Positions 18,050 to 53,042 of a stretch of 54,852 bases of DNA are shown piece by piece (positions within the stretch are counted from its first letter, which is position 1; each line of letters starts with the position of its first letter). This DNA is from a virus, in the IMG/VR virus record IMGVR_UViG_3300045988_117159; one strand, 5' to 3'. Made by a program: the position numbers and the translations under genes. The notes beneath the pieces are model-generated. The model did no database searches. It was not told the DNA's origin and was given only the letters and a program-made list of their open reading frames with translations.

Positions 18050-20374
18050 TCATCCTTCCATCTGATACATTTGTTGTAACCTTAATTCTCTACTCATTTC
18101 ATCAACTGATGCAATAGGTTGATTTATATTAATTTCTTGATTAAATTTGAACCCTTGAATTGCTAAATCTCCTAAACCATTTGAAATATCCATATTCATA
18201 ATATGTTGTAACGATTTAACACCGTTTAATAATGATGTTTCTATTTGAGACATTGGGTCATCTTCCATGAATCCTTCCACAATACCCATGCTCAAGAATT
18301 TACCAACCTCATTCTTCATAACCCTTGAAGGGGAATGAATTCCAAAGAATCCTTTGATTCCACTTAAAATTCCACTGCAAAATCCACCAATTTTACTCAA
18401 AATCCAATCTTTAACTGAATTAATACCATTCCATAATCCTTTAATCATATTTTTTCCAATATCAGTTATTCCTTTAATTCCATTATTGAATACGTTAGTG
18501 ATTGATTTTAAAATAGTTTTTGCATGACCCTCAACATTTGAAGCCATTGATTTAATACCATTTCCAATACCTTTAATCAGATTAATCCCTAAATTTAACC
18601 AATTATACGCTGTAAAAACTGATACAATAGCTTTAATAATTTGAGGGATATTAGCAATTAATGTTGGGATAGCTTTTATCAAGCCTGCTATTAATTGTAC
18701 AATTATTTCAAAACCTTTTGCTAAAATTGTTGGGAAATTATCATTGATGATATTAGCAAAAGTTGTAATGATTGTAGGAACATATGCAATTAATATTGGA
18801 ATGGCATTTGTTATTCCTTTAACTAAATTACTTAATAATTCAAAACCTTTTTGAATTAAGGTTGGAGCCGAATTTGCTAAACTTGTTGCAAAATCTTGAA
18901 TTATTTGAAGTAATTGTGGTAATACAGTTGGAATTGAACTTACAAATCCTTCTGCTAATGAACTCAATAAAGTCAAACCTAATTCTAATAATTGAGGTAT
19001 ACCTGATAATATTCCACTAATGATGTTATTTATAAGCGTAAATCCACTCGTCATCAGTATTGTGCTCGAACTCTCAAATCCAGCTTTCAACCCTGAAATA
19101 ACTTGTGAAACAATAGTACCTATATTGCTACTTAATGATTGTCCAAATTTAAACAACTGAGGTATAGCATCATCAAGAGCAATAGCAATTTTTTGAATGA
19201 ATTGTGATACTGTACCTGCTAATGATAATGAGCTACTATCAAAGCCTTTTAAAATAGTTTTCGCTAATTCAGGAATAGCAGTAGCAAATCCTTGAATAAT
19301 TGCACCAACCATATTTACTCCTGCAACGATTAATTTTGGCAAAATTCCTATAACAATCTTTGGAATTCTTTCCACAATTTTTGGAAGCATAGTTTCAATT
19401 AATGTACCTATACCATTTAAGATAATTTCTATTCTAGGAAATATATTATCTCCTACTGTATCAACACTTTCCACGAATTGATTAATTAATTCTTGTAAAT
19501 TAGCATCATCACTACCTAAACCTGTTACAAGATTATCCCAAGATGCTTTCATCATATTAACGGAACCTTCAATAGTTGTAGCAGCTTCTTTTGCTGAAGT
19601 TCCTGCAATACCCAAGCTTTTTTGCATAACTGAAATAGCGTTAACAATATTTCCAAAAGATAAATCTCCGTCTTTAACAGTGACATTTAACTCTTTTTGA
19701 ATTTCAGTCATTTTAGAAGCATCAGTAATTAATCTTTTCATTTCTTCTTTTGTACCACCATATCCTAACTTCAAGTTATCAAGCATTGTATAGTTTTGTT
19801 TTGCAAAACCTTGATAAGCCCACTGTATAGATTCTATAGAAGTACCCATTTTATTAGCATTATCTGACATATCTATCACTGCTCTATTAGCATAGTCTGC
19901 AGCCTTTTGAGTGTCTCCACCTAATGATTGTAATAATGACGCACTAAATCCCGTTACTTGTTCCATATATTGATTTCCGCTTATTTGAGCAGTTTTATAA
20001 GCTTGAGATGCATATTCTTGAACTTTTTTAGAAGCATCTTTAAATAAAGTATCAACTCCGCCAACAAGTTGTTCATATTTAGCATAGGATTTTGTAGCTT
20101 GTACAGTTAAGCCTGCTATTGCAGTAGATGAAGCTGTTACAGCCACAGCGGTGCCTTTAACAACAGCACCTGCTACTTGTTTAGCTCCGTTGGCAACTGA
20201 AGAACCAAAAGATTTTAGTTTAGCCCCGAGCCCATTAAAATGATTGTTCATTTGATTAGTGGTTCCTTGTGTATCTTTGGCTAAATCTTTTAATTTCTTC
20301 TTTAACTCTTCAATACCTTCTTTTAACCCTTTTTGGTCAAGTAGTGTCTCTATTGTAACTTTACCATCATTCAT
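18050..20374 (-). CDS. tail tape measure protein
   Basis: 774 aa. Long helical and hydrophobic repeats (GI..I..G motifs). Preceded by the chaperone pair. Confidence 0.85.
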   Translation of the reverse strand: MNDGKVTIETLLDQKGLKEGIEELKKKLKDLAKDTQGTTNQMNNHFNGLGAKLKSFGSSVANGAKQVAGAVVKGTAVAVTASSTAIAGLTVQATKSYAKYEQLVGGVDTLFKDASKKVQEYASQAYKTAQISGNQYMEQVTGFSASLLQSLGGDTQKAADYANRAVIDMSDNANKMGTSIESIQWAYQGFAKQNYTMLDNLKLGYGGTKEEMKRLITDASKMTEIQKELNVTVKDGDLSFGNIVNAISVMQKSLGIAGTSAKEAATTIEGSVNMMKASWDNLVTGLGSDDANLQELINQFVESVDTVGDNIFPRIEIILNGIGTLIETMLPKIVERIPKIVIGILPKLIVAGVNMVGAIIQGFATAIPELAKTILKGFDSSSLSLAGTVSQFIQKIAIALDDAIPQLFKFGQSLSSNIGTIVSQVISGLKAGFESSSTILMTSGFTLINNIISGILSGIPQLLELGLTLLSSLAEGFVSSIPTVLPQLLQIIQDFATSLANSAPTLIQKGFELLSNLVKGITNAIPILIAYVPTIITTFANIINDNFPTILAKGFEIIVQLIAGLIKAIPTLIANIPQIIKAIVSVFTAYNWLNLGINLIKGIGNGIKSMASNVEGHAKTILKSITNVFNNGIKGITDIGKNMIKGLWNGINSVKDWILSKIGGFCSGILSGIKGFFGIHSPSRVMKNEVGKFLSMGIVEGFMEDDPMSQIETSLLNGVKSLQHIMNMDISNGLGDLAIQGFKFNQEININQPIASVDEMSRELRLQQMYQMEG

Positions 20375-20394: not shown

Positions 20395-20973
20395 TTAAGT
20401 ATTATAAAATTCTTCTCTTATTTCTTTTAAAATTTCATTTGTATTCTTATTTTCTTTTTTTGGCAGTGACCATATATTTTTTAATTTTTGACATTGTTTT
20501 TCATACGATTTATTATCTTTTTTATAACTTCTAAAGCCCATAATTTGGGACATAATAGTTGATTCATTTAATCCAATAAATAATGCTTTAAACATATGCC
20601 AATGCATATCACATGATGTTAAATCTATCTTATATTGGGACATAAAAGAACTAACTATATATTCCCCATCTTGAATATAATCCCATACAATATCATTTGA
20701 TGTATCAGTTGATTCTATTGGTGTTGAATTTTTATTATTATAAAAATTTATTAGTGCTTCTAAAAATTCTTTTTGATATGCAATGGCTTCTATTGCTAAT
20801 ACATCATCTTTAATAACAAAGAATAAATCTATATAATTAAAATCCTTAAAAATAGAATCATCCTTTAACATTTCTCCAAATTTTAACCACTCTCTAAAAT
20901 CTGTGTATAATAAATAAGACTTGCCTCCTACATTTATGGAATTCGGCAAGCCTTTTGTTCTTAAATCTATCAT
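20395..20973 (-). CDS. tail assembly chaperone (Gp15-like)
   Basis: N-terminus LPNSINVGGKSYLLYTDFREWLKF resembles the Phage_Gp15 family. Position before the tape measure protein. Confidence 0.5.
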   Translation of the reverse strand: MIDLRTKGLPNSINVGGKSYLLYTDFREWLKFGEMLKDDSIFKDFNYIDLFFVIKDDVLAIEAIAYQKEFLEALINFYNNKNSTPIESTDTSNDIVWDYIQDGEYIVSSFMSQYKIDLTSCDMHWHMFKALFIGLNESTIMSQIMGFRSYKKDNKSYEKQCQKLKNIWSLPKKENKNTNEILKEIREEFYNT

Positions 20974-21353
20974 TTTTTATTAACAGTTAAATTTTGAGCT
21001 TTATCCATTGCATTGATAAGTTCAATTAATTTGTCGTATGATGATAAATCAATATCACCTAATGCTGTGGATTGGTTAAAATTATTTAACGGTTTATTGT
21101 ATGTTTGAATAATTGATAAATATAGAATATTTAATTCATTAGGGTCTACGTTGTTAAATTTGCCTAAAGCTTTTTCACAGTTTTCTTGCCCTAATAAATT
21201 ACACACTAATTCATACATTCCTTTACATTTTTCTTTAAAATGTAATTCAGGTTTAGAGTTATATAATTCCTGTTTTTCTAATTGTTCAGCAATTTTTAAA
21301 TTATATTTTGGTAATGTGAATACATCACCATTAAATTCTACTTGATAGTCCAT
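20970..21353 (-). CDS. tail assembly chaperone (G-like)
   Basis: Position between the tube and Gp15-like genes. Ends AAT AAA AAA TGA, overlapping the next ATG. Confidence 0.5.
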   Translation of the reverse strand: MDYQVEFNGDVFTLPKYNLKIAEQLEKQELYNSKPELHFKEKCKGMYELVCNLLGQENCEKALGKFNNVDPNELNILYLSIIQTYNKPLNNFNQSTALGDIDLSSYDKLIELINAMDKAQNLTVNKK

Positions 21354-34838: not shown

Positions 34839-35192
34839 TTATTTCCTCTTTAAAATATATAAAGTTGCCTCATAATAATGCGTAGTATTTTCAACTTCAG
34901 TAGCATCAGCTAATATATTACAGCATGTTTCTAACAGGTCTCTTTTTAATTCATCTTCTACTGTATAAGTTTCACTTGTAGATAAGCTTGGAAAATAAGG
35001 TTTATTGTACTTCAAATGAATATCTTTGATTTCATATTCAGTAAATTCTACTTTTGGGGCGCCGTACTTAATAGATGATATTGAAATTAACTTATTATTT
35101 AATTTCTTAATCACTTTATAATCTTTATTTAGATTATAATATTTGATTCCTAATATTAATACAATAATTAATAATATAATATTTATATACAT
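34839..35192 (-). CDS. membrane-anchored hypothetical protein (117 aa)
   Basis: N-terminal transmembrane segment YINIILLIIVLILGI. Confidence 0.5.
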   Translation of the reverse strand: MYINIILLIIVLILGIKYYNLNKDYKVIKKLNNKLISISSIKYGAPKVEFTEYEIKDIHLKYNKPYFPSLSTSETYTVEDELKRDLLETCCNILADATEVENTTHYYEATLYILKRK

Positions 35193-35692
35193 TATTCATC
35201 CTCCACGATTTCACAATTTTCTAAAACATCTTCAATAATATAATATTTTTGACTTTCCCAAGTCACGAATTGGAATAATTGCTCTAAAAAGTTACATAAA
35301 TAGCAAGTTTCACCGCCTGCCCACCATGTTTTATCATCATCCATGATATGAGGTTCTTTTTCATATAAATTTATCAGTCCGCCTTTGTCTCTACAAATAT
35401 AGTTTACTCCTTGTTTTTGCAAAAACTTGAGCATTTCATAATCTAAAAAGGTAACTTTGATTGGTTCTAAAGGTTCTAATTCGTCTAACTCATATCTCCA
35501 TACAAAATCATTTCCTTTTGCCATACATTGTCGGATGTTATCTTTACTCATAATATCCATATTATCATCGCATAAATCTCTAGCAAGCGCATGCACTGTA
35601 TGTGAACTCTCTAGTTGTTCACCTCTAATAATCATACCTTCATAGTCGAAACTGTATTTAGGAACTTTTAACTTAAATTTTTTCATTTTCAA
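35192..35692 (-). CDS. hypothetical protein (166 aa), paralog of 35673..36161
   Basis: Colinear similarity to the upstream gene (EGM(I/V)(I/V).GE.., (M/V)DIM(S/T)K..I..CM, ..(W/A)W(A/F)G.., ..(E/Q)D(V/I)L..(C/Y)E(I/V)(V/I)E). Confidence 0.6.
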   Translation of the reverse strand: MKMKKFKLKVPKYSFDYEGMIIRGEQLESSHTVHALARDLCDDNMDIMSKDNIRQCMAKGNDFVWRYELDELEPLEPIKVTFLDYEMLKFLQKQGVNYICRDKGGLINLYEKEPHIMDDDKTWWAGGETCYLCNFLEQLFQFVTWESQKYYIIEDVLENCEIVEDE

Positions 35693-36113
35693 TCACCTCA
35701 TATCTATTTAAAATGTCTTGAATTAAAGTAGGTTCTTCATTATCATAAGAAACAAAAGGATATAACTCTTTAAGGTACATATCGAAAACAGGGTAGTAAC
35801 CTTCATTTTTACCAAACCATGCACCCCCATTAAATACAGGTTTATTTTTGAAAAAATTCAATCTATTGTCTGTTTCATCACGTGTAATGTATTTATATCC
35901 CATTTCTAATTGATGTTCTAGAAGTAATTTTTCTAGCATTGTAAAAGTAGGTTTTATTTTCTTTAAATAGTCTTTACCGAACTCATATCTAGGATATTCC
36001 ATACAGTTAATGATTTGTTCTTTAGTCATGATGTCTACATTCAACTTACAAATATCAATACTGTCGGCTTCTAAAATTTTAGTTCTTCCATCAATTTCTC
36101 CTTCAACAACCAT
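35673..36113 (-). CDS. hypothetical protein (146 aa as annotated). The frame continues upstream through a TAG (36128..36126) to an SD-preceded ATG at 36161.
   Basis: Same frame verified codon by codon. AAGGAG SD lies before ATG 36161. Similarity to the paralog extends upstream of ATG 36113. Confidence 0.6.
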   Translation of the reverse strand: MVVEGEIDGRTKILEADSIDICKLNVDIMTKEQIINCMEYPRYEFGKDYLKKIKPTFTMLEKLLLEHQLEMGYKYITRDETDNRLNFFKNKPVFNGGAWFGKNEGYYPVFDMYLKELYPFVSYDNEEPTLIQDILNRYEVIENEKI

Positions 36114-36444: not shown

Positions 36445-36726
36445 TTATTTCAATGTTATAACTTTATAATCACCATTTACTTTTTTATCTTGGTCACATA
36501 AAATATAACCTACTTCACAATTAAATATTTCACATAAGCTATACAATGTTTCAGCATCAGGAAGTTTTTTACCATTTTCAATATCACTTAAAGTATTTCT
36601 ACCAATGTGTAATTTTTCAATTAAATCATATTGTGTCATCCTCATTTCTTTTCTATTTTCTTTAATTCTTTTTCCAATTTCTACCATTTTTAATTTATAT
36701 TTCATTTTAAATTTCTCCTTTATCAT
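36445..36726 (-). CDS. XRE-family HTH protein (candidate antitoxin/regulator)
   Basis: IGKRIKENRKEMRMTQYDLIEKLHIGRNTLSDIENGKKLP is a classic Cro/C1-type HTH. ATGA overlap with the MazF-like gene. Confidence 0.8.
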   Translation of the reverse strand: MIKEKFKMKYKLKMVEIGKRIKENRKEMRMTQYDLIEKLHIGRNTLSDIENGKKLPDAETLYSLCEIFNCEVGYILCDQDKKVNGDYKVITLK

Positions 36727-37070
36727 AAATTAAATTGAATTCTCATACTTTGTTTTACTTTATTCACGTTATATTCATTTAAAGATAAAACTTTTTTAAT
36801 TAAAAATTCTTTTGATATCGTGACTGTTTGTTCCGATAATACATAATTATCAATTCCAAAAATTCTAATTTTAGTATGTTGAGGTAAATGGTCTTTTTTA
36901 GTTGTCAATGGAATAACTCCTATTAAATCACAATATTCATTATTCTTATCATTTGATACAACTACTGCCATTCTTCTTCCCTTTTGATAATGTTTATTTT
37001 TGGCTATTGGAAAAACTCTATTAAAATCAATCCAAAACACATCATCATATTTTATTTCATTTGATACCAT
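36723..37070 (-). CDS. mazF: MazF/PemK-family endoribonuclease-like toxin
   Basis: Colinear with EndoA/MazF: DVFWIDF.., GRRMAVVVSND, IGVIPLTTK, LPQHTKI, VLSEQTVTISKEFL. Confidence 0.75.
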   Translation of the reverse strand: MVSNEIKYDDVFWIDFNRVFPIAKNKHYQKGRRMAVVVSNDKNNEYCDLIGVIPLTTKKDHLPQHTKIRIFGIDNYVLSEQTVTISKEFLIKKVLSLNEYNVNKVKQSMRIQFNL

Positions 37071-37305: not shown

Positions 37306-37662
37306 CTAATCACCACATTTCTTTTTACCATATTTTTTACTACCGTATTTTTCATTAAAACATTCTTTACATATTTTGTCATGACCGTTTCCTTTGCTTC
37401 TTTTTCTAAAATATCTAATAGGCTTAATTTCATGACAAACTCTACACTCTAATTCAGTAAGCTTTTCATAATAAATAAATTTAACATCATATCTAGCTTT
37501 GATTAAATTCTCTTCAGATATTGCCTGACTAATTGATTGTGGTGTTCTCCCAAAATAATCAGCCACTTCTTTTCTAGTTCCTACAAAAATACACTCATAA
37601 TCATTTCTTGTATCATAGATTCCATAGATAGCTATATGGTCTGCTTTTCTTTTAATTGACAT
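37306..37662 (-). CDS. NUMOD1-like HTH + zinc-ribbon protein (118 aa)
   Basis: VGTRKEVADYFGRTPQSISQAI HTH, then CRVCH..CKEC. Paralogous segment in 39699..40079. Confidence 0.45.
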   Translation of the reverse strand: MSIKRKADHIAIYGIYDTRNDYECIFVGTRKEVADYFGRTPQSISQAISEENLIKARYDVKFIYYEKLTELECRVCHEIKPIRYFRKRSKGNGHDKICKECFNEKYGSKKYGKKKCGD

Positions 37663-42650: not shown

Positions 42651-42792
42651 TTCTTACTCTCCTTTTCAATTCTCCATTTTTAAGTCTAGCTCCTCTAGAT
42701 TCTCCTTTTGGAGTTAGTAATATTCTAAAGGGTTGATTCTCTTTAAAATCATACCCTTTAAAACGATTTATCTTATTAAATATATTTTTCAT
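42637..42792 (-). CDS. small basic ORF (51 aa), not in the track
   Basis: TAATG coupling with the upstream gene. Overlaps the next start by 14 nt. Confidence 0.35.
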   Translation of the reverse strand: MKNIFNKINRFKGYDFKENQPFRILLTPKGESRGARLKNGELKRRVRNVRY

Positions 42793-43052
42793 TAATCCAC
42801 CTCTAATTTTTCAACTTGTTCTTTAGTAAAGAAAGCTAATAGTTTTAAAAAGTAATTTTGAGTTTCAACTTCTTCACCTTTTTCATTTTCTACTTTTTTA
42901 GTAGTTCTTTTCCAAATAGAAATTTTATGTTTTGATTTTTCACCTTTTTTAACTTTATAACCAAGTCTTTTCCATTCAGCAAAAGTATGTAATTCTATAC
43001 TTGGTTCTAGTTCATTCATTGCTATATATCTTGATATGATTTCTTTATTACA
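42792..43052 (-). CDS. small protein with an ArdC-N-like motif (86 aa from the ATG at 43052)
   Basis: GAGGAGG SD before ATG 43052. HTFAEWKRLGYKVKKGEKS resembles the ArdC/DUF1738 ssDNA-binding motif (TF.QW..LG..VKKGEK). Confidence 0.35.
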   Translation of the reverse strand, partial: CNKEIISRYIAMNELEPSIELHTFAEWKRLGYKVKKGEKSKHKISIWKRTTKKVENEKGEEVETQNYFLKLLAFFTKEQVEKLEVD

Positions 43053-43056
43053 CATT

Positions 43057-43377
43057 CTACTTACCTCCTCTAAATGTTTTAACAGCAATACCCATATCAT
43101 TTAAGTTAAATAAATTATAATAAGGTTCTTCTTGATTGTTAAGATAGTCCATCACCATTTGTTGTGAAATTAATTCTTTAATTTTTTCTTTTCCAATGAA
43201 TCTAATTTCTTTATTTCCTATAGTGTCTACAACTGAATCATAACAAGAATTTAATAAATCTAATAAACTTGGTACTTCTTCCACACCATCTTCACAAGCA
43301 TTCATCCAACCACATACTTCAAATCTAATAAATTTTCTTGTTAATATAACTGTTCTTTCTTGTAATTTATTTTCCAT
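43057..43377 (-). CDS. hypothetical protein (106 aa)
   Basis: ORF preceded by the leader-like GGTAAGGTACATAAAGATG. Confidence 0.5.
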   Translation of the reverse strand: MENKLQERTVILTRKFIRFEVCGWMNACEDGVEEVPSLLDLLNSCYDSVVDTIGNKEIRFIGKEKIKELISQQMVMDYLNNQEEPYYNLFNLNDMGIAVKTFRGGK

Positions 43378-48505: not shown

Positions 48506-48525
48506 AAGAAGCTATTAAGCTTCTT
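48506..48525 (-). terminator. Rho-independent terminator type I (same stem as 1618..1637)
   Basis: AAGAAGC-TTAATA-GCTTCTT followed by a T run. It contains the ..EEA-stop of the clamp gene. Confidence 0.7.
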
Positions 48526-49594
48526 CATCTTCTAACAGTGCAATTACTTGAATCACTTTTCCACATTCTAATTTAATAGCATTATCATCACCATACCATA
48601 ATTTAACTGTGTCTTCAGGATAAGCTTGTAATTGCTCTTTTAACATTGGAATATCCACTAGGCACGTAAATGGCTTAAATTCATGTGATTCAATATAATT
48701 AATTGTTTCAGTTGATGCATCTTTTCTACTATGAATATTTAAACCTTTTCTTGTAAAGTTAAAATATGCTCCGTTTTTATCATATGGTTCAATAAATAAT
48801 TGTAATCTATCTAACACTGATAGTAATAATGCTTTAGGAATCTTACAATATGATTCAAAGGCAACATCTAAATATCTAGAAATTTCTTCTACCGGATAAT
48901 CTTCAATTCCTTCTAATAATGTTCCATAAATCATCATATTATCATCATAGATAATTAATTCATCAGCTCCACCTAATGTTACTTTAACATCTTCATTTTT
49001 AAATAGTGACATTAAGTTCATCATTTGCGGTGAAATTAATAAAGGTTGTTTTGAATTAAACATATTGAATTTATTAAATGTAATAACCATACTATCAGTA
49101 GAAATTACATTATCACCACAATAATAACCAGTTAAGCAAGGTTGCTCTAATGTTTTGGCTAAAGCTGATTTATTAATATTAAATGCCGACATGATGCTTG
49201 ATAATTTAACTGTTAATTGTTCAGTTGCTTCAATCTTTGGAATTTCAGGAAAGCTAACCAATCCTTCTTCATCACTTATTAATGAAATCTTATATGTTCC
49301 ATTCCCTTTGATAATTAGTACATCATCTTTAACTGATAAATCAATTTCAGGTGATGTCATTTTAGAAATTAATTTTCCAAACTTTTCCGCTTCTACTGTA
49401 ATATCAATATCATCACCTAAAACTTTATCTAATGTCATTTCTAATGTATTTGTCATATCAGTTGATAATAAATGTAATTTATTATTATTTAATTTAATTC
49501 CAATCATTTGAGTAATTGGAATTAATGCATTATTACTTGTTCCCTTTAAAGAATTATTTACTGCTTCTTTTAATAAATTTGTTGCAATTTTCAT
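48515..49594 (-). CDS. dnaN: DNA polymerase III beta sliding clamp-like protein
   Basis: 359 aa. The N-terminus MKIATNLLKEAVN..IPITQMIGIKLNNNKLHLLSTDMTNTLEMTL parallels DnaN. Clamp-loader genes are in the genome. Confidence 0.7.
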   Translation of the reverse strand: MKIATNLLKEAVNNSLKGTSNNALIPITQMIGIKLNNNKLHLLSTDMTNTLEMTLDKVLGDDIDITVEAEKFGKLISKMTSPEIDLSVKDDVLIIKGNGTYKISLISDEEGLVSFPEIPKIEATEQLTVKLSSIMSAFNINKSALAKTLEQPCLTGYYCGDNVISTDSMVITFNKFNMFNSKQPLLISPQMMNLMSLFKNEDVKVTLGGADELIIYDDNMMIYGTLLEGIEDYPVEEISRYLDVAFESYCKIPKALLLSVLDRLQLFIEPYDKNGAYFNFTRKGLNIHSRKDASTETINYIESHEFKPFTCLVDIPMLKEQLQAYPEDTVKLWYGDDNAIKLECGKVIQVIALLEDEEA

Positions 49595-49613: not shown

Positions 49614-50192
49614 TTAAAATAGTTCTTTTTTATGCTCTTTTATAATTAAATCATCATTAGCACAATATCTATGAGAATAACATACTCTATTTATATAGAA
49701 TAACATTGTTTCAATATTATTTTTATAATGCCGTTTAGCGCAATCACGTATTGTTCCATCTTTTGTTAAGTCATTCTTTCTATTACAATGATTTAACTTT
49801 GTAGGCTCCCATAATTCACTATGATTATCTCTATGAACTCCCATTCTAGGATTAGCTGTTTTTGCATAATACAAATATCCCTGTTGTGTATAAATATCAC
49901 CAAAATATTCAGATAATTTATTACCTATACTCATACCTTGATAATCTGGAAGAACAACAAATCTATGTTCGATATAAGCTTTTTTGTTATTTTTAAATTT
50001 ACCAGGAAGACATCGTACACTTGCAAAAGCAACTAATTTATCATTCCAAGTAGCTAAATAGCAATCTGAATTATTTAATAAATTTCCACTTAAATAATGA
50101 TGTCTTTTAAAGTACGTCCAAACTTGGGGTTTACACTTACAAATTTTAAGAATAATTTTTGACTTTCTCCTGGGACAATCACTTAAAATCAT
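49614..50192 (-). CDS. GNAT-fold acetyltransferase-like protein
   Basis: Motif A-like FVVLPDYQGMSIGNKLSEYF (Q/R-x-x-G-x-G/A). ATGA overlap with the ATPase gene. Confidence 0.55.
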   Translation of the reverse strand: MILSDCPRRKSKIILKICKCKPQVWTYFKRHHYLSGNLLNNSDCYLATWNDKLVAFASVRCLPGKFKNNKKAYIEHRFVVLPDYQGMSIGNKLSEYFGDIYTQQGYLYYAKTANPRMGVHRDNHSELWEPTKLNHCNRKNDLTKDGTIRDCAKRHYKNNIETMLFYINRVCYSHRYCANDDLIIKEHKKELF

Positions 50193-50782
50193 TTTTTTGT
50201 ATCTAAATTATAAATCCAATCAGGTTTTAACCAATCTATAATATCATAATGACAGCTAGCAAAAACTATATTTTTTAATTTTTTATTTCTTATATATTTT
50301 TGAATAGAGTAAGAGCAACTAATTGCGCACTCTCTATTTACTACACTAGTAAATTCATCAATTACTGCATTATCTTTCAATTTTCTAGCCAAGTTTGCTC
50401 TAAATCGTTGACCATTTGACAACGTATTATATGATTGTAACCAAGTTGGAATAGAATTTAATCCTACAGCTCCTAAACGTTCAATAGCATCCTCGTAATT
50501 TTCAAAATTATCTGCTATACAATAATCATTATTCCATGATATTTTTTCATCTTTTCCAAATTTAGATAAAAGAGTTGATTTTCCTGAACCTGATGCACCA
50601 ATTATTAACCCAATTTGAAAATCACTTGGAAAATTTGGAATGTCTATCTCAATTTTTTGTTTTCCATCAAATTCATAATCAAAAGCATTTGATATTTTTT
50701 TAGTGGTATCTGTAAGAATTATTTTATTTTCTAAAATTATGCTGTTTTTTTTTGTTTTCGTTTCTATATTAAATAAACTCAT
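50189..50782 (-). CDS. minimal ABC-type ATPase (197 aa)
   Basis: Walker A GASGSGKST, signature LSNGQRFRANLARKL, Walker B AVIDEFTS, H-loop-like ASCHYD. Confidence 0.7.
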   Translation of the reverse strand: MSLFNIETKTKKNSIILENKIILTDTTKKISNAFDYEFDGKQKIEIDIPNFPSDFQIGLIIGASGSGKSTLLSKFGKDEKISWNNDYCIADNFENYEDAIERLGAVGLNSIPTWLQSYNTLSNGQRFRANLARKLKDNAVIDEFTSVVNRECAISCSYSIQKYIRNKKLKNIVFASCHYDIIDWLKPDWIYNLDTKK

Positions 50783-50792
50783 ATATTTTCAC

Positions 50793-53042
50793 CTACATTT
50801 CTATTTTTTCACCATACCAATTATATGTGAAATCAACATCACATTTAAAAGGTAACTTAATTAAATGACTTGGTGCAGTTCTCATTAAATATGATAATCT
50901 TTCCGCACATTCTTTTGCATTTTCTTCAGGACACTCTCCAATGACTTCATCATGCACTTGAATTAATAAATGAAATCCTAACTCTTTCATTTTTTCATCA
51001 TTATTAATTGAAATCATTGCTAATTTAGCCATATCCGCAGCCGAACCTTGAACACGTGCGTTAACACATTGTCTTTCGGCTTGAGAAATAAATCCTCCGT
51101 TATCTTTAATCTTGATTCCTAATTGATATGCTTCTTGTATAATTTTATTTTTATTTTGCCAACCGAAAGATTTTTTCAATCTATCAGTATATTCTTTTTT
51201 AATTCTTTCAGGCACCTCATTTGAACAATCATTATTAAAATCCAATGGGTCAAAACTTACTCTATTCCCACTATATTTAAATTCATATGGTTCTAACTGC
51301 ATATCAGTTAAGTGCCTTCTTCTTCCCCAAGCAGTAGTAACATAACCATATTTTCTAGCCATATCTTGTGATTCATCAATGAAATTCGCTAAACCCGTAA
51401 AAGCACTTAACACTTTATCATAAATGACTTGTGCTTGTTTAGTTGAAACTCCTAATTGTTCCGCAATAGATGGAATTTGTCTTCCATATAATACACCCAA
51501 AACGATACTTTTAGCTTGTGTTCTTCTTTCTTTTCCTTGAACATTTGTAGTACCATCGGGTCTAAATTCCAAGCAATCCTCATAAGATTTATTAAAGGCT
51601 AGACTTGCAATAGTGGAATAAATATCTTTTCCATGAATAAAGGCGTCTTGCATTTTTTTATCTTTTGATAGATAAGATGTGACCATAGGTTCTTGTTGAC
51701 TATAATCCGCACCTAATAAGATATATCCATCTTGTGCTTTAAACATTTGTCTAATTTCCTTATTGTGACTTGGTATGTTTTGTAAATTTGGGTCACTACT
51801 TGAAAATCTTCCTGTTTTAGCACCATATTGATTAAAACTTGCATGGATTCTTCCATCTTTTAAAGCTATATTAGGCATTTTTTCAATGTAAGTATTTAAT
51901 AATTTATCTACATTTCTCATTCCTAAAATTGCTTCGCAAAGATTTTTTTCTTTACCTTTTGCAAAATGTTTTAGAATTTCCTCACCTGTACCTCTTGGTG
52001 ACTTCTTATCAGGACTTTCTAATTTTAAAATGTCATAAAATAATATAGCTAATTGAGTTGGACTTGATAATGAAATTGGTTCACTCAATTTATTATTTGG
52101 ATTTTTCATTTTGTATTCCTCAATTTGTTCTTGGTACATTGAAATAGCCTTATTGGCTTGTTCCAATCTCTCTTTTCTAATGTTTGTGTATTTTTCTAAA
52201 AGTTTATTACAAATTTCAAAATCCAAACAAACTCCTCTATCTTCCATATCAGCTACAACTTCAACCAACGGCATTTCTATATTCATAAATACATTATAAG
52301 GTCCTGCTAATCTTCTTCTATTAAGTACAGTCTTTTGATATTCATATAATTCAAAAGTCTTAATTGCATCACCAGCCGCATATAAATATGCAACTTTAAT
52401 TGGTACATAATCAAATTGAATTCCATTAAACAGTTTATCAAAAGTTAATGATTCAATATCTTTAGAATCACAATATTTTAAATGTAAGTCTTTTAATCTA
52501 TGACTTTCATTTTCATCAATACAGTATCCTGCCAACATTGTATCCCAATAACATTTTAGATTTAGATTTAAACAATGTCTAATAACCCTAATATCATATT
52601 TAGAATTATGCATTATCCATTTTCCCTCAAATCTTTTTAATTCTTCAGCTACATCTTTTTCATTTAGTTGATTTGAAGTTCGTACATTTGTAATATGTGA
52701 TTTATGATTAATTGGAATATATACTGCTTTTTTTCCTTTAGTGTATAAACACACGCCTACAATATCAATCAATAATGGATTCAATCCTGTTGTTTCAGTA
52801 TCTATTGCACATTCTCCATTTTTGATACATAAATCAATATATTCATGTAATGATTGTTTATCTCTAATTAATTCATAATCCTCTTTATGATGTTTCAATT
52901 TAGTTTCAGCCATTGAAATCATCATATCTATTTTTTGGGAGAGGTTTCCTCCCCCTTTAATAGATGTTCTAGTTATTGATGATTTAGCTTTTTTAACTAA
53001 AGCTTTTTCATTAGGCTTAATTCTTCCAAAATTAAAAGTCAT
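50793..53042 (-). CDS. polA: family A DNA polymerase with a 3'-5' exonuclease domain
   Basis: Exo motifs DTETTGL, HNSKYD, YAAGDA. Pol motifs DYSQQEP (A), RRTQAKSIVLGVLYG (B), QVHDEV (C). Confidence 0.9.
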   Translation of the reverse strand: MTFNFGRIKPNEKALVKKAKSSITRTSIKGGGNLSQKIDMMISMAETKLKHHKEDYELIRDKQSLHEYIDLCIKNGECAIDTETTGLNPLLIDIVGVCLYTKGKKAVYIPINHKSHITNVRTSNQLNEKDVAEELKRFEGKWIMHNSKYDIRVIRHCLNLNLKCYWDTMLAGYCIDENESHRLKDLHLKYCDSKDIESLTFDKLFNGIQFDYVPIKVAYLYAAGDAIKTFELYEYQKTVLNRRRLAGPYNVFMNIEMPLVEVVADMEDRGVCLDFEICNKLLEKYTNIRKERLEQANKAISMYQEQIEEYKMKNPNNKLSEPISLSSPTQLAILFYDILKLESPDKKSPRGTGEEILKHFAKGKEKNLCEAILGMRNVDKLLNTYIEKMPNIALKDGRIHASFNQYGAKTGRFSSSDPNLQNIPSHNKEIRQMFKAQDGYILLGADYSQQEPMVTSYLSKDKKMQDAFIHGKDIYSTIASLAFNKSYEDCLEFRPDGTTNVQGKERRTQAKSIVLGVLYGRQIPSIAEQLGVSTKQAQVIYDKVLSAFTGLANFIDESQDMARKYGYVTTAWGRRRHLTDMQLEPYEFKYSGNRVSFDPLDFNNDCSNEVPERIKKEYTDRLKKSFGWQNKNKIIQEAYQLGIKIKDNGGFISQAERQCVNARVQGSAADMAKLAMISINNDEKMKELGFHLLIQVHDEVIGECPEENAKECAERLSYLMRTAPSHLIKLPFKCDVDFTYNWYGEKIEM

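Follow-up and report, generated by a model that had tools for sequence, protein, structure and literature searches.

A split ABC ATPase and GNAT acyltransferase locus of a gut phage: probable frameshifted allele of a single gene from a family predicted to acylate DNA bases

Iyer, Zhang, Burroughs and Aravind reportedly predicted in Nucleic Acids Research in 2013 that ABC-GNAT proteins, which join an ABC ATPase domain to a GNAT acyltransferase domain, form a DNA-base acylation system. Other enzymes of the GNAT type act on DNA: these include Mom (PMC7824862) and PaMx11 gp48, whose substrate is the DNA polymer (PMC8989533). Section 3.4.7 of PMC7824862 (2021) restates the prediction of Iyer et al. 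2013 that ABC-GNAT proteins put an acyl modification on a DNA base, and Tenacibaculum phage pT24 is named there as a family member. ParB-like proteins are described as activators of DNA base-modifying enzymes in PMC13229309, and DpdB is a second precedent for such an activator. The present work concerns a 54,852-nucleotide (nt) stretch of viral DNA, IMG/VR record IMGVR_UViG_3300045988_117159, called the window below when its full length is meant. It derives from a human gut metagenome phage (ENA ERZ918926) and carries, between the DNA polymerase and sliding-clamp genes, two overlapping open reading frames (ORFs) for an ABC ATPase domain and a GNAT domain.

The initial annotation took these ORFs for a translationally coupled two-protein design and could assign them to no characterised phage system. 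The second statement holds in that no characterised system claims the family, but the family had already been named and predicted by computation. The window ORF even carries at the Joint Genome Institute the COG-style name 'ABC-type ATPase with predicted acetyltransferase domain'. The ABC-GNAT family is already described, by computation only, and the window gene is a disrupted-allele member of it. Our overall reading, which we consider probable, is that the two ORFs are a frameshifted allele of a single ABC ATPase-GNAT gene, the family of which is predicted to acylate DNA bases. Loci compared are labelled L and homologous proteins P, followed by a number.

One gene and its junction tract

The ABC ORF (50189..50782, minus strand, 197 amino acids (aa)) and the GNAT ORF (49614..50192, minus strand, 192 aa) have the lengths and the overlap initially annotated: in the window translation, the TGA of the former and the ATG of the latter share the letters ATGA. 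On phrog_11143 (357 positions) the ABC ORF occupies positions 2-189 (9e-69) and the GNAT ORF, which lies in the -1 frame, positions 196-351 (2e-30). On our own family profile they occupy positions 4-193 (3.9e-73) and 200-356 (1.8e-51). The ORFs are the N-terminal and C-terminal halves of an ABC-GNAT gene, as assigned by Pfam, PHROG and the family profile for the first and by Pfam, PHROG, the family profile and the GNAT fold for the second.

At 90% identity, the window GNAT clusters mostly with 389-aa proteins (P0178, on 23 contigs, and P0176, P0180, P0184, P0186, P0187 and P0189). Each is the 197-aa and 192-aa window proteins joined as ...NLDTKK|MILSDCP..., and the sibling DNA with this single 389-aa ORF is 99.7-99.8% identical to the window gene. 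In a DNA alignment of 17 copies of the gene, window included, the only junction change is the contraction of a poly-A tract from A8 to A7 (50192..50198, minus strand). Column 606 is a gap in the window, L168 and L169 and an A in the 14 other loci; every fused allele aligned has A8, while A7 is found in the window and the two loci identical to it. The A7 tract reads A_AAA_AAA in the 0 frame with TGA immediately after, and its last A begins the GNAT ATG. The one-base contraction makes the ABC part stop at this TGA and puts the GNAT part in the -1 frame, its ATG being an internal Met codon of the fused gene which the contraction exposed. A single polypeptide is typical of the family; the siblings encode one (389 aa) and the window allele encodes two ORFs. 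No Shine-Dalgarno motif is present at the GNAT ORF, and 6-nt ones are present at the ABC, polA and clamp genes. The exact 197-aa plus 192-aa pair is carried by 9 contigs; the fused form is found on at least 30 contigs versus about 11 for the A7 form.

Assembly error does not account for the A7 allele, which is real. The same junction is obtained in independent ENA and Logan assemblies of different runs, and in the DNA alignment the allele is linked to single-nucleotide polymorphisms (SNPs) private to its haplotype. In addition, 20 other A/T runs of at least 7 bases lie within intact window ORFs, which argues against a general homopolymer error. The coupled two-protein design is an accident of the one-base tract contraction, and this part of the initial annotation had to be abandoned: in addition to the missing Shine-Dalgarno motif and the 389-aa P0178, 77/80 viral loci compared are fused. 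The window allele might be off, or it might leak through termination-reinitiation or through -1 slippage on A_AAA_AAA. It could also function as two chains, since clean split versions exist in other phages.

The motifs of both halves were read on the minus strand and compared with the family alignment. The ABC ORF has, in this order, a Walker A or P-loop motif GASGSGKST (residues 62-70, 50573..50599; G, S, G, G and K invariant), an ABC signature LSNGQ (residues 121-125, 50408..50422; LSxGE/Q in the family, S and G invariant), a Walker B motif with the catalytic Glu, AVIDE (residues 139-143, 50354..50368, VIDEF being residues 140-144; D and E invariant), and an H-loop histidine, H178, in ASCHYD (50249..50251; family consensus ASCHxDI). 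All are conserved, and the family motif FTSVVNR comes right after Walker B. In the GNAT ORF, the family-specific HHYL motif lies at the start of the domain (residues 31-34, 50091..50102), its H and Y being invariant, as are a W and an F upstream. GNAT motif A is QGMSIG (residues 85-90, 49923..49940). Its Ser88 (AGT, first base 49931) takes the place of a Gly shared by at least 90% of family members and by every fused sibling allele (QGMGIG); at the corresponding column 874 of the DNA alignment, the window, L168 and L169 have A and the other loci G. The family-specific motifs W..F..HHYL, REHR-VVLPDYQG, KT-HP and R..YSHEY are all represented in the window GNAT ORF, in the versions VWTYFKRHHYL, IEHRFVVLPDYQG, KTANP and RVCYSHRY.

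Profile and fold searches agree with the initial calls of an ABC domain and a GNAT. The ABC half passes Pfam ABC_tran (26.8 bits, cutoff 25). The GNAT half passes Acetyltransf_7 (29.6 versus 27) and Acetyltransf_1 (29.4 versus 20.7), with a weak NCBIfam rimI match as well. The AlphaFold2 model of the GNAT half has a predicted local distance difference test score of 80-92, and Foldseek matched it to many solved GNATs at probability 1.0 with a template-modelling (TM) score of about 0.6. The model of the ABC half is of low confidence because the alignment was shallow. Compared with the PDB, the family profile matched OpuCA, ABCE1, UvrA and ABCB1 at 1e-22 to 1e-14; sequence searches of the PDB with each window half separately gave only generic or noise matches. 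Among PADLOC defence profiles, the ABC half had short P-loop matches only and the GNAT half none. Membership of a known defence or anti-defence family was rejected on these PADLOC results, which amount to P-loop noise.

The ABC-GNAT family and its links to DNA

An exhaustive phmmer search with the GNAT half, clustered at 50% identity, returned 1058 clusters at E<=1e-3 and 375 at E<=1e-10, and the pairing of the two domains extends well outside this genome, which the initial annotation had left to be checked. Of the best 150 clusters, most are proteins 340-400 aa long whose Walker A falls around residue 55, with LSxGE around 115 and QGxGxG around 280. Among the IMG/VR loci, 77/80 (about 96%) are fused and 2/80 split (L035 and L083), and the genomic matches are 348-607 aa long in 69/70 cases. 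The family counts at least 577 loci in species-representative genomes, and includes phages of many phyla and some eukaryote-like proteins. Phage pT24 is among the matches of both window halves. Annotated phage fusions are Aeromonas PX29 gp085, Gordonia Jace gp86 and Burkholderia phiE255 gp29. Tandem ABC-ABC-GNAT forms also exist (P0113, P0099). Ten long relatives carry about 150-200 additional aa at the C-terminus, in which Pfam found no domain.

Clean splits are known in L035, with a 4-nt gap and AGGA upstream, and in Thomasclavelia phage TR-TP1, where gp98 and gp97 lie 26 nt apart beside the DNA polymerase gene. In L083 (1116-1145) the halves are in the same frame with a single TAA between them and an A10 run after the TAA; the locus may be an allele split by a nonsense change or a candidate for read-through. 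Streptococcus phage Javan523 (L004 3504-5508) has the order ParB_N, ABC, GNAT, ASCH, an arrangement repeated in phages 315.4, phiNIH1.1 and other Javan prophages, where the ABC part is annotated 'iron siderophore transporter'. In the S. pyogenes prophage copies the GNAT is in the -1 frame relative to the ABC part through a single frame change, and in Javan523 its frame is open from about L004:4576 with no start codon until 4801. A GNAT in the -1 frame without its own start indicates that these widespread prophage copies are also frameshift-split.

The genomic context of the family fits a role linked to DNA. In 19/80 viral loci (24%) and 45/70 bacterial or archaeal genomic loci (64%), the gene immediately upstream, on the same strand, encodes a ParB_N protein, as called by Pfam ParB_N (28.6 bits). 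The genomic ParB-linked loci are mostly prophage-like regions of Planctomycetota and Nonomuraea, and the prophage gene order is ParB, ABC-GNAT, terS-like, terL, portal. Fusions point the same way. P0134 has an N-terminal ParB-like region (read from the sequence; Pfam gave no score) fused to ABC-GNAT. P0152 joins the GNAT to a phage DNA polymerase (phrog_1252, 4e-70) with the family-B motif DVASLYPNS; comparison of its C-terminus with the PDB gave noise, the polymerase identity coming from PHROGs. P0111 is fused to a DnaB-like AAA_25 ATPase with a helix-turn-helix, P0101 to a Strawberry-notch (SBNO) helicase, and P0084 and P0099 to Tudor domains, while one long family member has a PHD finger. 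We also observed eukaryote-like architectures in P0084, P0099, P0101 and P0113, with tandem ABC-ABC-GNAT and a PTM/DIR17-type Tudor, and a 2734-aa protein that combines ABC-GNAT with the Strawberry-notch helicase. Judged by these predicted architectures, the family extends to chromatin-type proteins.

ASCH domains form a second, sporadic association. P0139 and P0156 have ASCH-like C-terminal extensions (read from the sequence), and one long family member has a Pfam ASCH domain. In Streptococcus prophages a clear ASCH gene follows the ABC-GNAT gene (PDB 5GUS, 3e-13), and ASCH-like genes neighbour ABC-GNAT in five Nonomuraea loci and two viral loci. Other neighbours may be hints of donor chemistry. 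In Jace (L002 3453-5532) the neighbours of the ABC-GNAT gene on its two sides are ParB and an aspartate decarboxylase, the latter producing beta-alanine, a precursor of coenzyme A (CoA) or possibly an acyl donor. In phiE255 (L003 3953-5685) a PurN-like formyltransferase gene follows.

As initially annotated, the window gene lies among replisome genes, with polA (50793..53042) upstream and the sliding-clamp gene dnaN (48515..49594; phrog_947, 5e-32) downstream. Beyond the clamp come a Cas4-like exonuclease, a RuvC-like resolvase, a UvsX-like recombinase and clamp loaders. The order polA, fused ABC-GNAT, dnaN is repeated in L007, and polA is upstream in L070. In L007 (471-2106) we observed a GIY-YIG/NUMOD3 homing endonuclease gene interrupting polA, and an ABC-GNAT gene with a shortened, out-of-frame 5′ end. 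In Clostridium phage phiCTP1, the polA of which is 44% identical, the polA-dnaN slot holds a DNA methyltransferase, gp51 (phrog_498, 3e-69). The three genes of this slot (L005 7342-9350) are annotated as hypothetical; gp51 has a faint ParB-like N-terminus, and gp50 and gp52 have no PHROG match. In the sibling L172 (3382-5648), an extra SNF2/DEAD-type helicase (458 aa) and an N6_N4 DNA methyltransferase (297 aa) are encoded between ABC-GNAT and dnaN. DNA-modification genes appear to accumulate in this slot, and a methyltransferase at the same place in related phages supports a DNA-modification reading. On this context, ATP-coupled acyl transfer onto nucleic acid is the best-supported reading of the function, for which all the evidence is contextual. 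The nucleic-acid-directed acetyl transfer that the initial annotation called conceivable, among other targets, is retained in this sense, without the two-protein form given to it.

Elsewhere in the window, several minus-strand features were recorded. A 127-aa and a 192-aa ORF (20395-21353) overlap by ATGA at ...AAT AAA AAA TGA, upstream of a 774-aa tape-measure-like ORF (18050-20374); the second ORF, in the -1 frame, lacks a Shine-Dalgarno motif. They look like a tail-assembly-chaperone G/GT pair with a programmed -1 frameshift, the junction of which resembles that of ABC/GNAT. A small ORF (42792-43100) has an ArdC N-terminal domain, anti-restriction and single-stranded-DNA-binding (Pfam ArdcN 1.8e-6, 28.6 bits, cutoff 22.6). 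A MazF-like growth inhibitor match (36723-37070; phrog_1936, 1e-19) is followed by ORF 36445-36726, which it overlaps by ATGA, and the two may be a toxin-antitoxin-like pair. Two adjacent paralogous ORFs of 166 and 146 aa (35192-36113) both match phrog_22292, and a 118-aa ORF (37306-37662) has a Cys-rich Stc1-type domain (Pfam Stc1 1.2e-6, 29.4 bits, cutoff 24.8).

Allelic variation and alternative explanations

The gene varies at a second tract. Codons 10-12 of the ABC ORF contain a 5′ poly-A tract (50745..50753, minus strand) which is A9 in the window and A8 in other siblings, alignment column 51 being a gap in L172-L175 and L177. The A8 form causes an early frameshift and accounts for gene calls of 259 aa that lack Walker A. 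This 259-aa product, P0179, is present on 8 contigs, which come from several studies and represent at least two SNP backgrounds. Another allele, P0182, is an A7 split that keeps the normal QGMGIG. Tract and deletion changes aside, the fetched copies show 3 SNP columns in 1169 nt, a low count that is partly a selection effect, the copies having been fetched by exact protein match. Comparison of the window with the others is free of this effect: ABC-GNAT is 99.7-99.8% identical, versus 93-95% for polA and about 95% for dnaN. A near-identical ABC-GNAT beside diverged polA and dnaN would mean that the cassette recently moved between related phages, and these identities suggest recent horizontal exchange.

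Several points weigh against the overall reading. With a profile built from the neighbouring ParB genes, no ParB match at E<=10 was found in the six-frame ORFs of the window, and a search of the window for an ASCH partner found none. The prophage position before terS and terL could mean a packaging or late-gene role. By fold, the GNAT half comes closest to GNATs that act on proteins or small molecules, such as RimI and Naa50, and no biochemical or genetic test of any ABC-GNAT member was found in the literature searched. Among sibling alleles, P0024 has an out-of-frame internal deletion that takes out motif A, and P0185 has lost 14 aa, among them the LSN of the signature motif. With the motif-A substitution of the window and these deletion alleles, the gene may be dispensable in this lineage. 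A cytosine N4 target, discussed below, is a guess from the sporadic ASCH association and from the handling of N4-acylcytidine by some ASCH proteins.

The alternative that we take most seriously, though we think it rather unlikely, is a pseudogene in the making, that is, a dispensable accessory cassette being lost through frameshifts, point changes and deletions. The window allele combines its frameshift with Gly88Ser in motif A. The deletions in P0024 and P0185 and the loss of Walker A in the 5′ A8 alleles fit such a decay, as do the S. pyogenes prophage GNAT, also in the -1 frame without its own start codon, and the damaged 5′ end of L007. However, the intact allele is the commonest and neither window ORF has internal stops. 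In addition, an identity of 99.7-99.8% across lineages with polA and dnaN 5-7% apart points to recent spread and not to neglect.

In bacteria, DNA-modification genes are well known to switch through homopolymer tracts. A phase-variable switch would set the predicted DNA-modifying enzyme on, off or split at high frequency by slipped-strand tract changes, the mixed genomes hedging between restriction types. Coding tracts do vary among near-identical genomes (A9/A8 and A8/A7), as at contingency loci: two separate tracts differ by one base where there are otherwise 3 SNP columns in 1169 nt. The 5′ A8 allele is on at least two or three SNP backgrounds, in samples of several studies. Moreover, 2/8 genome tracts of at least 8 bases (the junction counted as A8) fall in this 1.2-kb gene, versus about 0.17 expected. 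On the other hand, A-runs are common at 28% GC, and the tract lengths come from consensus contigs. The A7 form is tied to private SNPs, including the probably damaging Gly-to-Ser change, and looks like a fixed lineage, while the deletion alleles suit decay better. A switch is possible but doubtful on this balance; the tract variation may fit a contingency locus, accessory-gene decay, or both.

The third alternative concerns the substrate and is of similarly doubtful standing. The enzyme would not be DNA-directed and would acetylate a protein (of the replisome, of packaging or of host defence), RNA or tRNA, or a small molecule, with the ABC part as an ATP-driven clamp or regulator. The best folds are indeed protein N-terminal, ribosomal-protein and aminoglycoside acetyltransferases, and the weak rimI match is of the same kind. 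Moreover, ABC-F and ABCE1 proteins act on ribosomes, and a position by terS/terL or replisome genes suits a protein target too. Nevertheless, fold similarity among GNATs does not track substrate. The domains that occur as partners or in fusions are tied to DNA or chromatin (ParB_N, DNA polymerase, DnaB-like ATPase, SBNO helicase, Tudor, PHD), and relatives have a methyltransferase in the same slot.

Three further explanations bear on the split itself. We regard as very improbable an evolved two-subunit system, in which separate ABC and GNAT proteins would be made in a fixed ratio by ATGA termination-reinitiation and then form a complex. Both ORFs are intact and full length with all family motifs kept except one Gly, ATGA overlaps are ordinary in this genome (six cases), and clean splits occur in TR-TP1 and L035. 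Yet the near-identical siblings have one ORF, the sole junction difference being one homopolymer A. The GNAT ORF has no Shine-Dalgarno motif, and the fused form predominates both among the contigs and in the family.

A programmed -1 frameshift at A_AAA_AAA-TGA would give mostly ABC alone and some fusion, mimicking a layout of two ABC per GNAT. The heptamer is in the correct register (0-frame AAA AAA) with the 0-frame stop directly after, and reading on in the -1 frame gives precisely the fused protein of the siblings. Tandem ABC-ABC-GNAT proteins exist, the S. pyogenes prophage copies are likewise split by a -1 frame change, and AAAAAATGA occurs elsewhere in this genome, where the likely tail-chaperone pair changes to the -1 frame. 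But relatives do not keep the site: the siblings, with A8, read straight through in frame, and L007 lacks an A-run at this place. The hairpin downstream did not reach significance (z = -1.2), with a spacer of about 2 nt versus a criterion of 5-9 nt. We find this explanation scarcely credible. Finally, a sequencing or assembly error, with a true A8 tract and an artefactual split, would need only one homopolymer base, but it is rejected as next to inconceivable in view of the independent assemblies, the 9 contigs with the exact pair, the linked private SNPs, and the unbroken window genes at the 20 other long A/T runs.

Proposed activity and comparison with known systems

If the window ORFs are a frameshifted allele of one ABC-GNAT gene, the intact enzyme may be pictured as follows. 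The ABC domains would pair as the usual ATP-sandwich dimer, for which the tandem ABC-ABC-GNAT relatives are indirect support, and ATP binding and hydrolysis would serve to engage DNA. Where a ParB_N partner is present, it may load or activate the enzyme on DNA; in the window subgroup, which is ParB-free, the gene is embedded between the polymerase and clamp genes. The GNAT domain would transfer an acyl group from acyl-CoA to an exocyclic amine of a phage DNA base, and the modification would shield phage DNA from host restriction. Some ASCH proteins handle N4-acylcytidine and, given the ASCH link, N4 of cytosine is our tentative favourite for the target. A protein may also be the target, since the closest solved folds are RimI and Naa50-type enzymes.

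A bolder version of this scheme is speculative and, to us, rather improbable. In it, the intact 389-aa enzyme would put a new N-acyl base, for example N4-acetyl-deoxycytidine, in replicating phage DNA, with the ABC dimer as an ATP-driven DNA clamp beside the replisome. The two tracts would be a true phase switch, so that gut phage populations hold modified genomes beside unmodified ones and are hedged against classical as well as modification-dependent restriction. Slippage into the -1 frame might also let the A7 allele give ABC alone and a little fusion.

The locus matters in several ways. It belongs to a large family predicted since 2013 to acylate DNA, an experimental test of which was not found in the literature searched. 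It shows that the window 'pair' is an allele and not an architecture, which removes a tempting two-protein model, and it adds a ParB-free, replisome-embedded subgroup of ABC-GNAT. Near-isogenic natural ON, split and OFF alleles in human gut phages are ready-made controls, and comparison of DNA from them could reveal the modification directly. If phase variation is true, a phage would here be varying the modification state of its own DNA.

The initial annotation drew an analogy with TmcA-type enzymes, and the likeness is functional only. As in TmcA/NAT10, which are ATP-dependent N4-acetyltransferases of RNA cytidines, a P-loop NTPase is N-terminal to a GNAT and coupled to action on nucleic acid, an action which is predicted here. 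The TmcA P-loop is helicase-like, whereas that of the window is ABC-type with signature and H-loop, and the substrate of the window enzyme is probably DNA. No TmcA-specific domain was matched in the window pair by Pfam or NCBIfam, and Foldseek against the TmcA structure 2zpa gave a TM score of 0.16-0.24 with a root-mean-square deviation of 13 Å. TmcA-type membership was rejected on these three grounds: the other P-loop class, the missing domains and the poor fold match.

Among phage enzymes, Mom of phage Mu is likewise a GNAT-fold protein modifying a DNA base amine (adenine N6, acyl-type) with an anti-restriction role, and in phiE255, a Mu-like phage, the ABC-GNAT gene directly follows the tail-fibre genes. 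Mom lacks an ATPase domain, however, and no sequence similarity of ABC-GNAT to Mom was detected in the searches run. Gp48 of Pseudomonas phage PaMx11 is a demonstrated GNAT that acetylates 5-aminomethyl-deoxyuridine in polymeric phage DNA (PMC8989533). It differs as a stand-alone GNAT in a 5-hydroxymethyl-deoxyuridine hypermodification cluster (kinase, amino-acid:DNA transferase, FAD lyase). No genes of such a cluster were identified in the window, where not every ORF was scanned against the profile library. With phasevarion methyltransferases, the ABC-GNAT gene shares a predicted DNA-modification function, a frame set by homopolymer length and variants among near-identical genomes. It is phage-borne and of another enzyme class, and decay is an equally good reading of its variation.

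The ParB-dependent enzymes (DpdB-DpdA, phage T-dioxygenases, ParB-methyltransferase fusions) likewise have ParB_N directly upstream or fused, and as among them there are ParB-linked and ParB-free subclasses of ABC-GNAT. The difference is that the catalytic domain of ABC-GNAT is a GNAT with its own ABC ATPase and that its ParB dependence is putative. Within the ABC-GNAT family (PHROG 11143) itself, the window gene is distinguished by the split through tract contraction and the Gly-to-Ser change in motif A, and by a place without a ParB partner inside the replication module and not before terminase genes. The two window ORFs nevertheless align colinearly with the family, with all conserved motifs present apart from the Gly of motif A.

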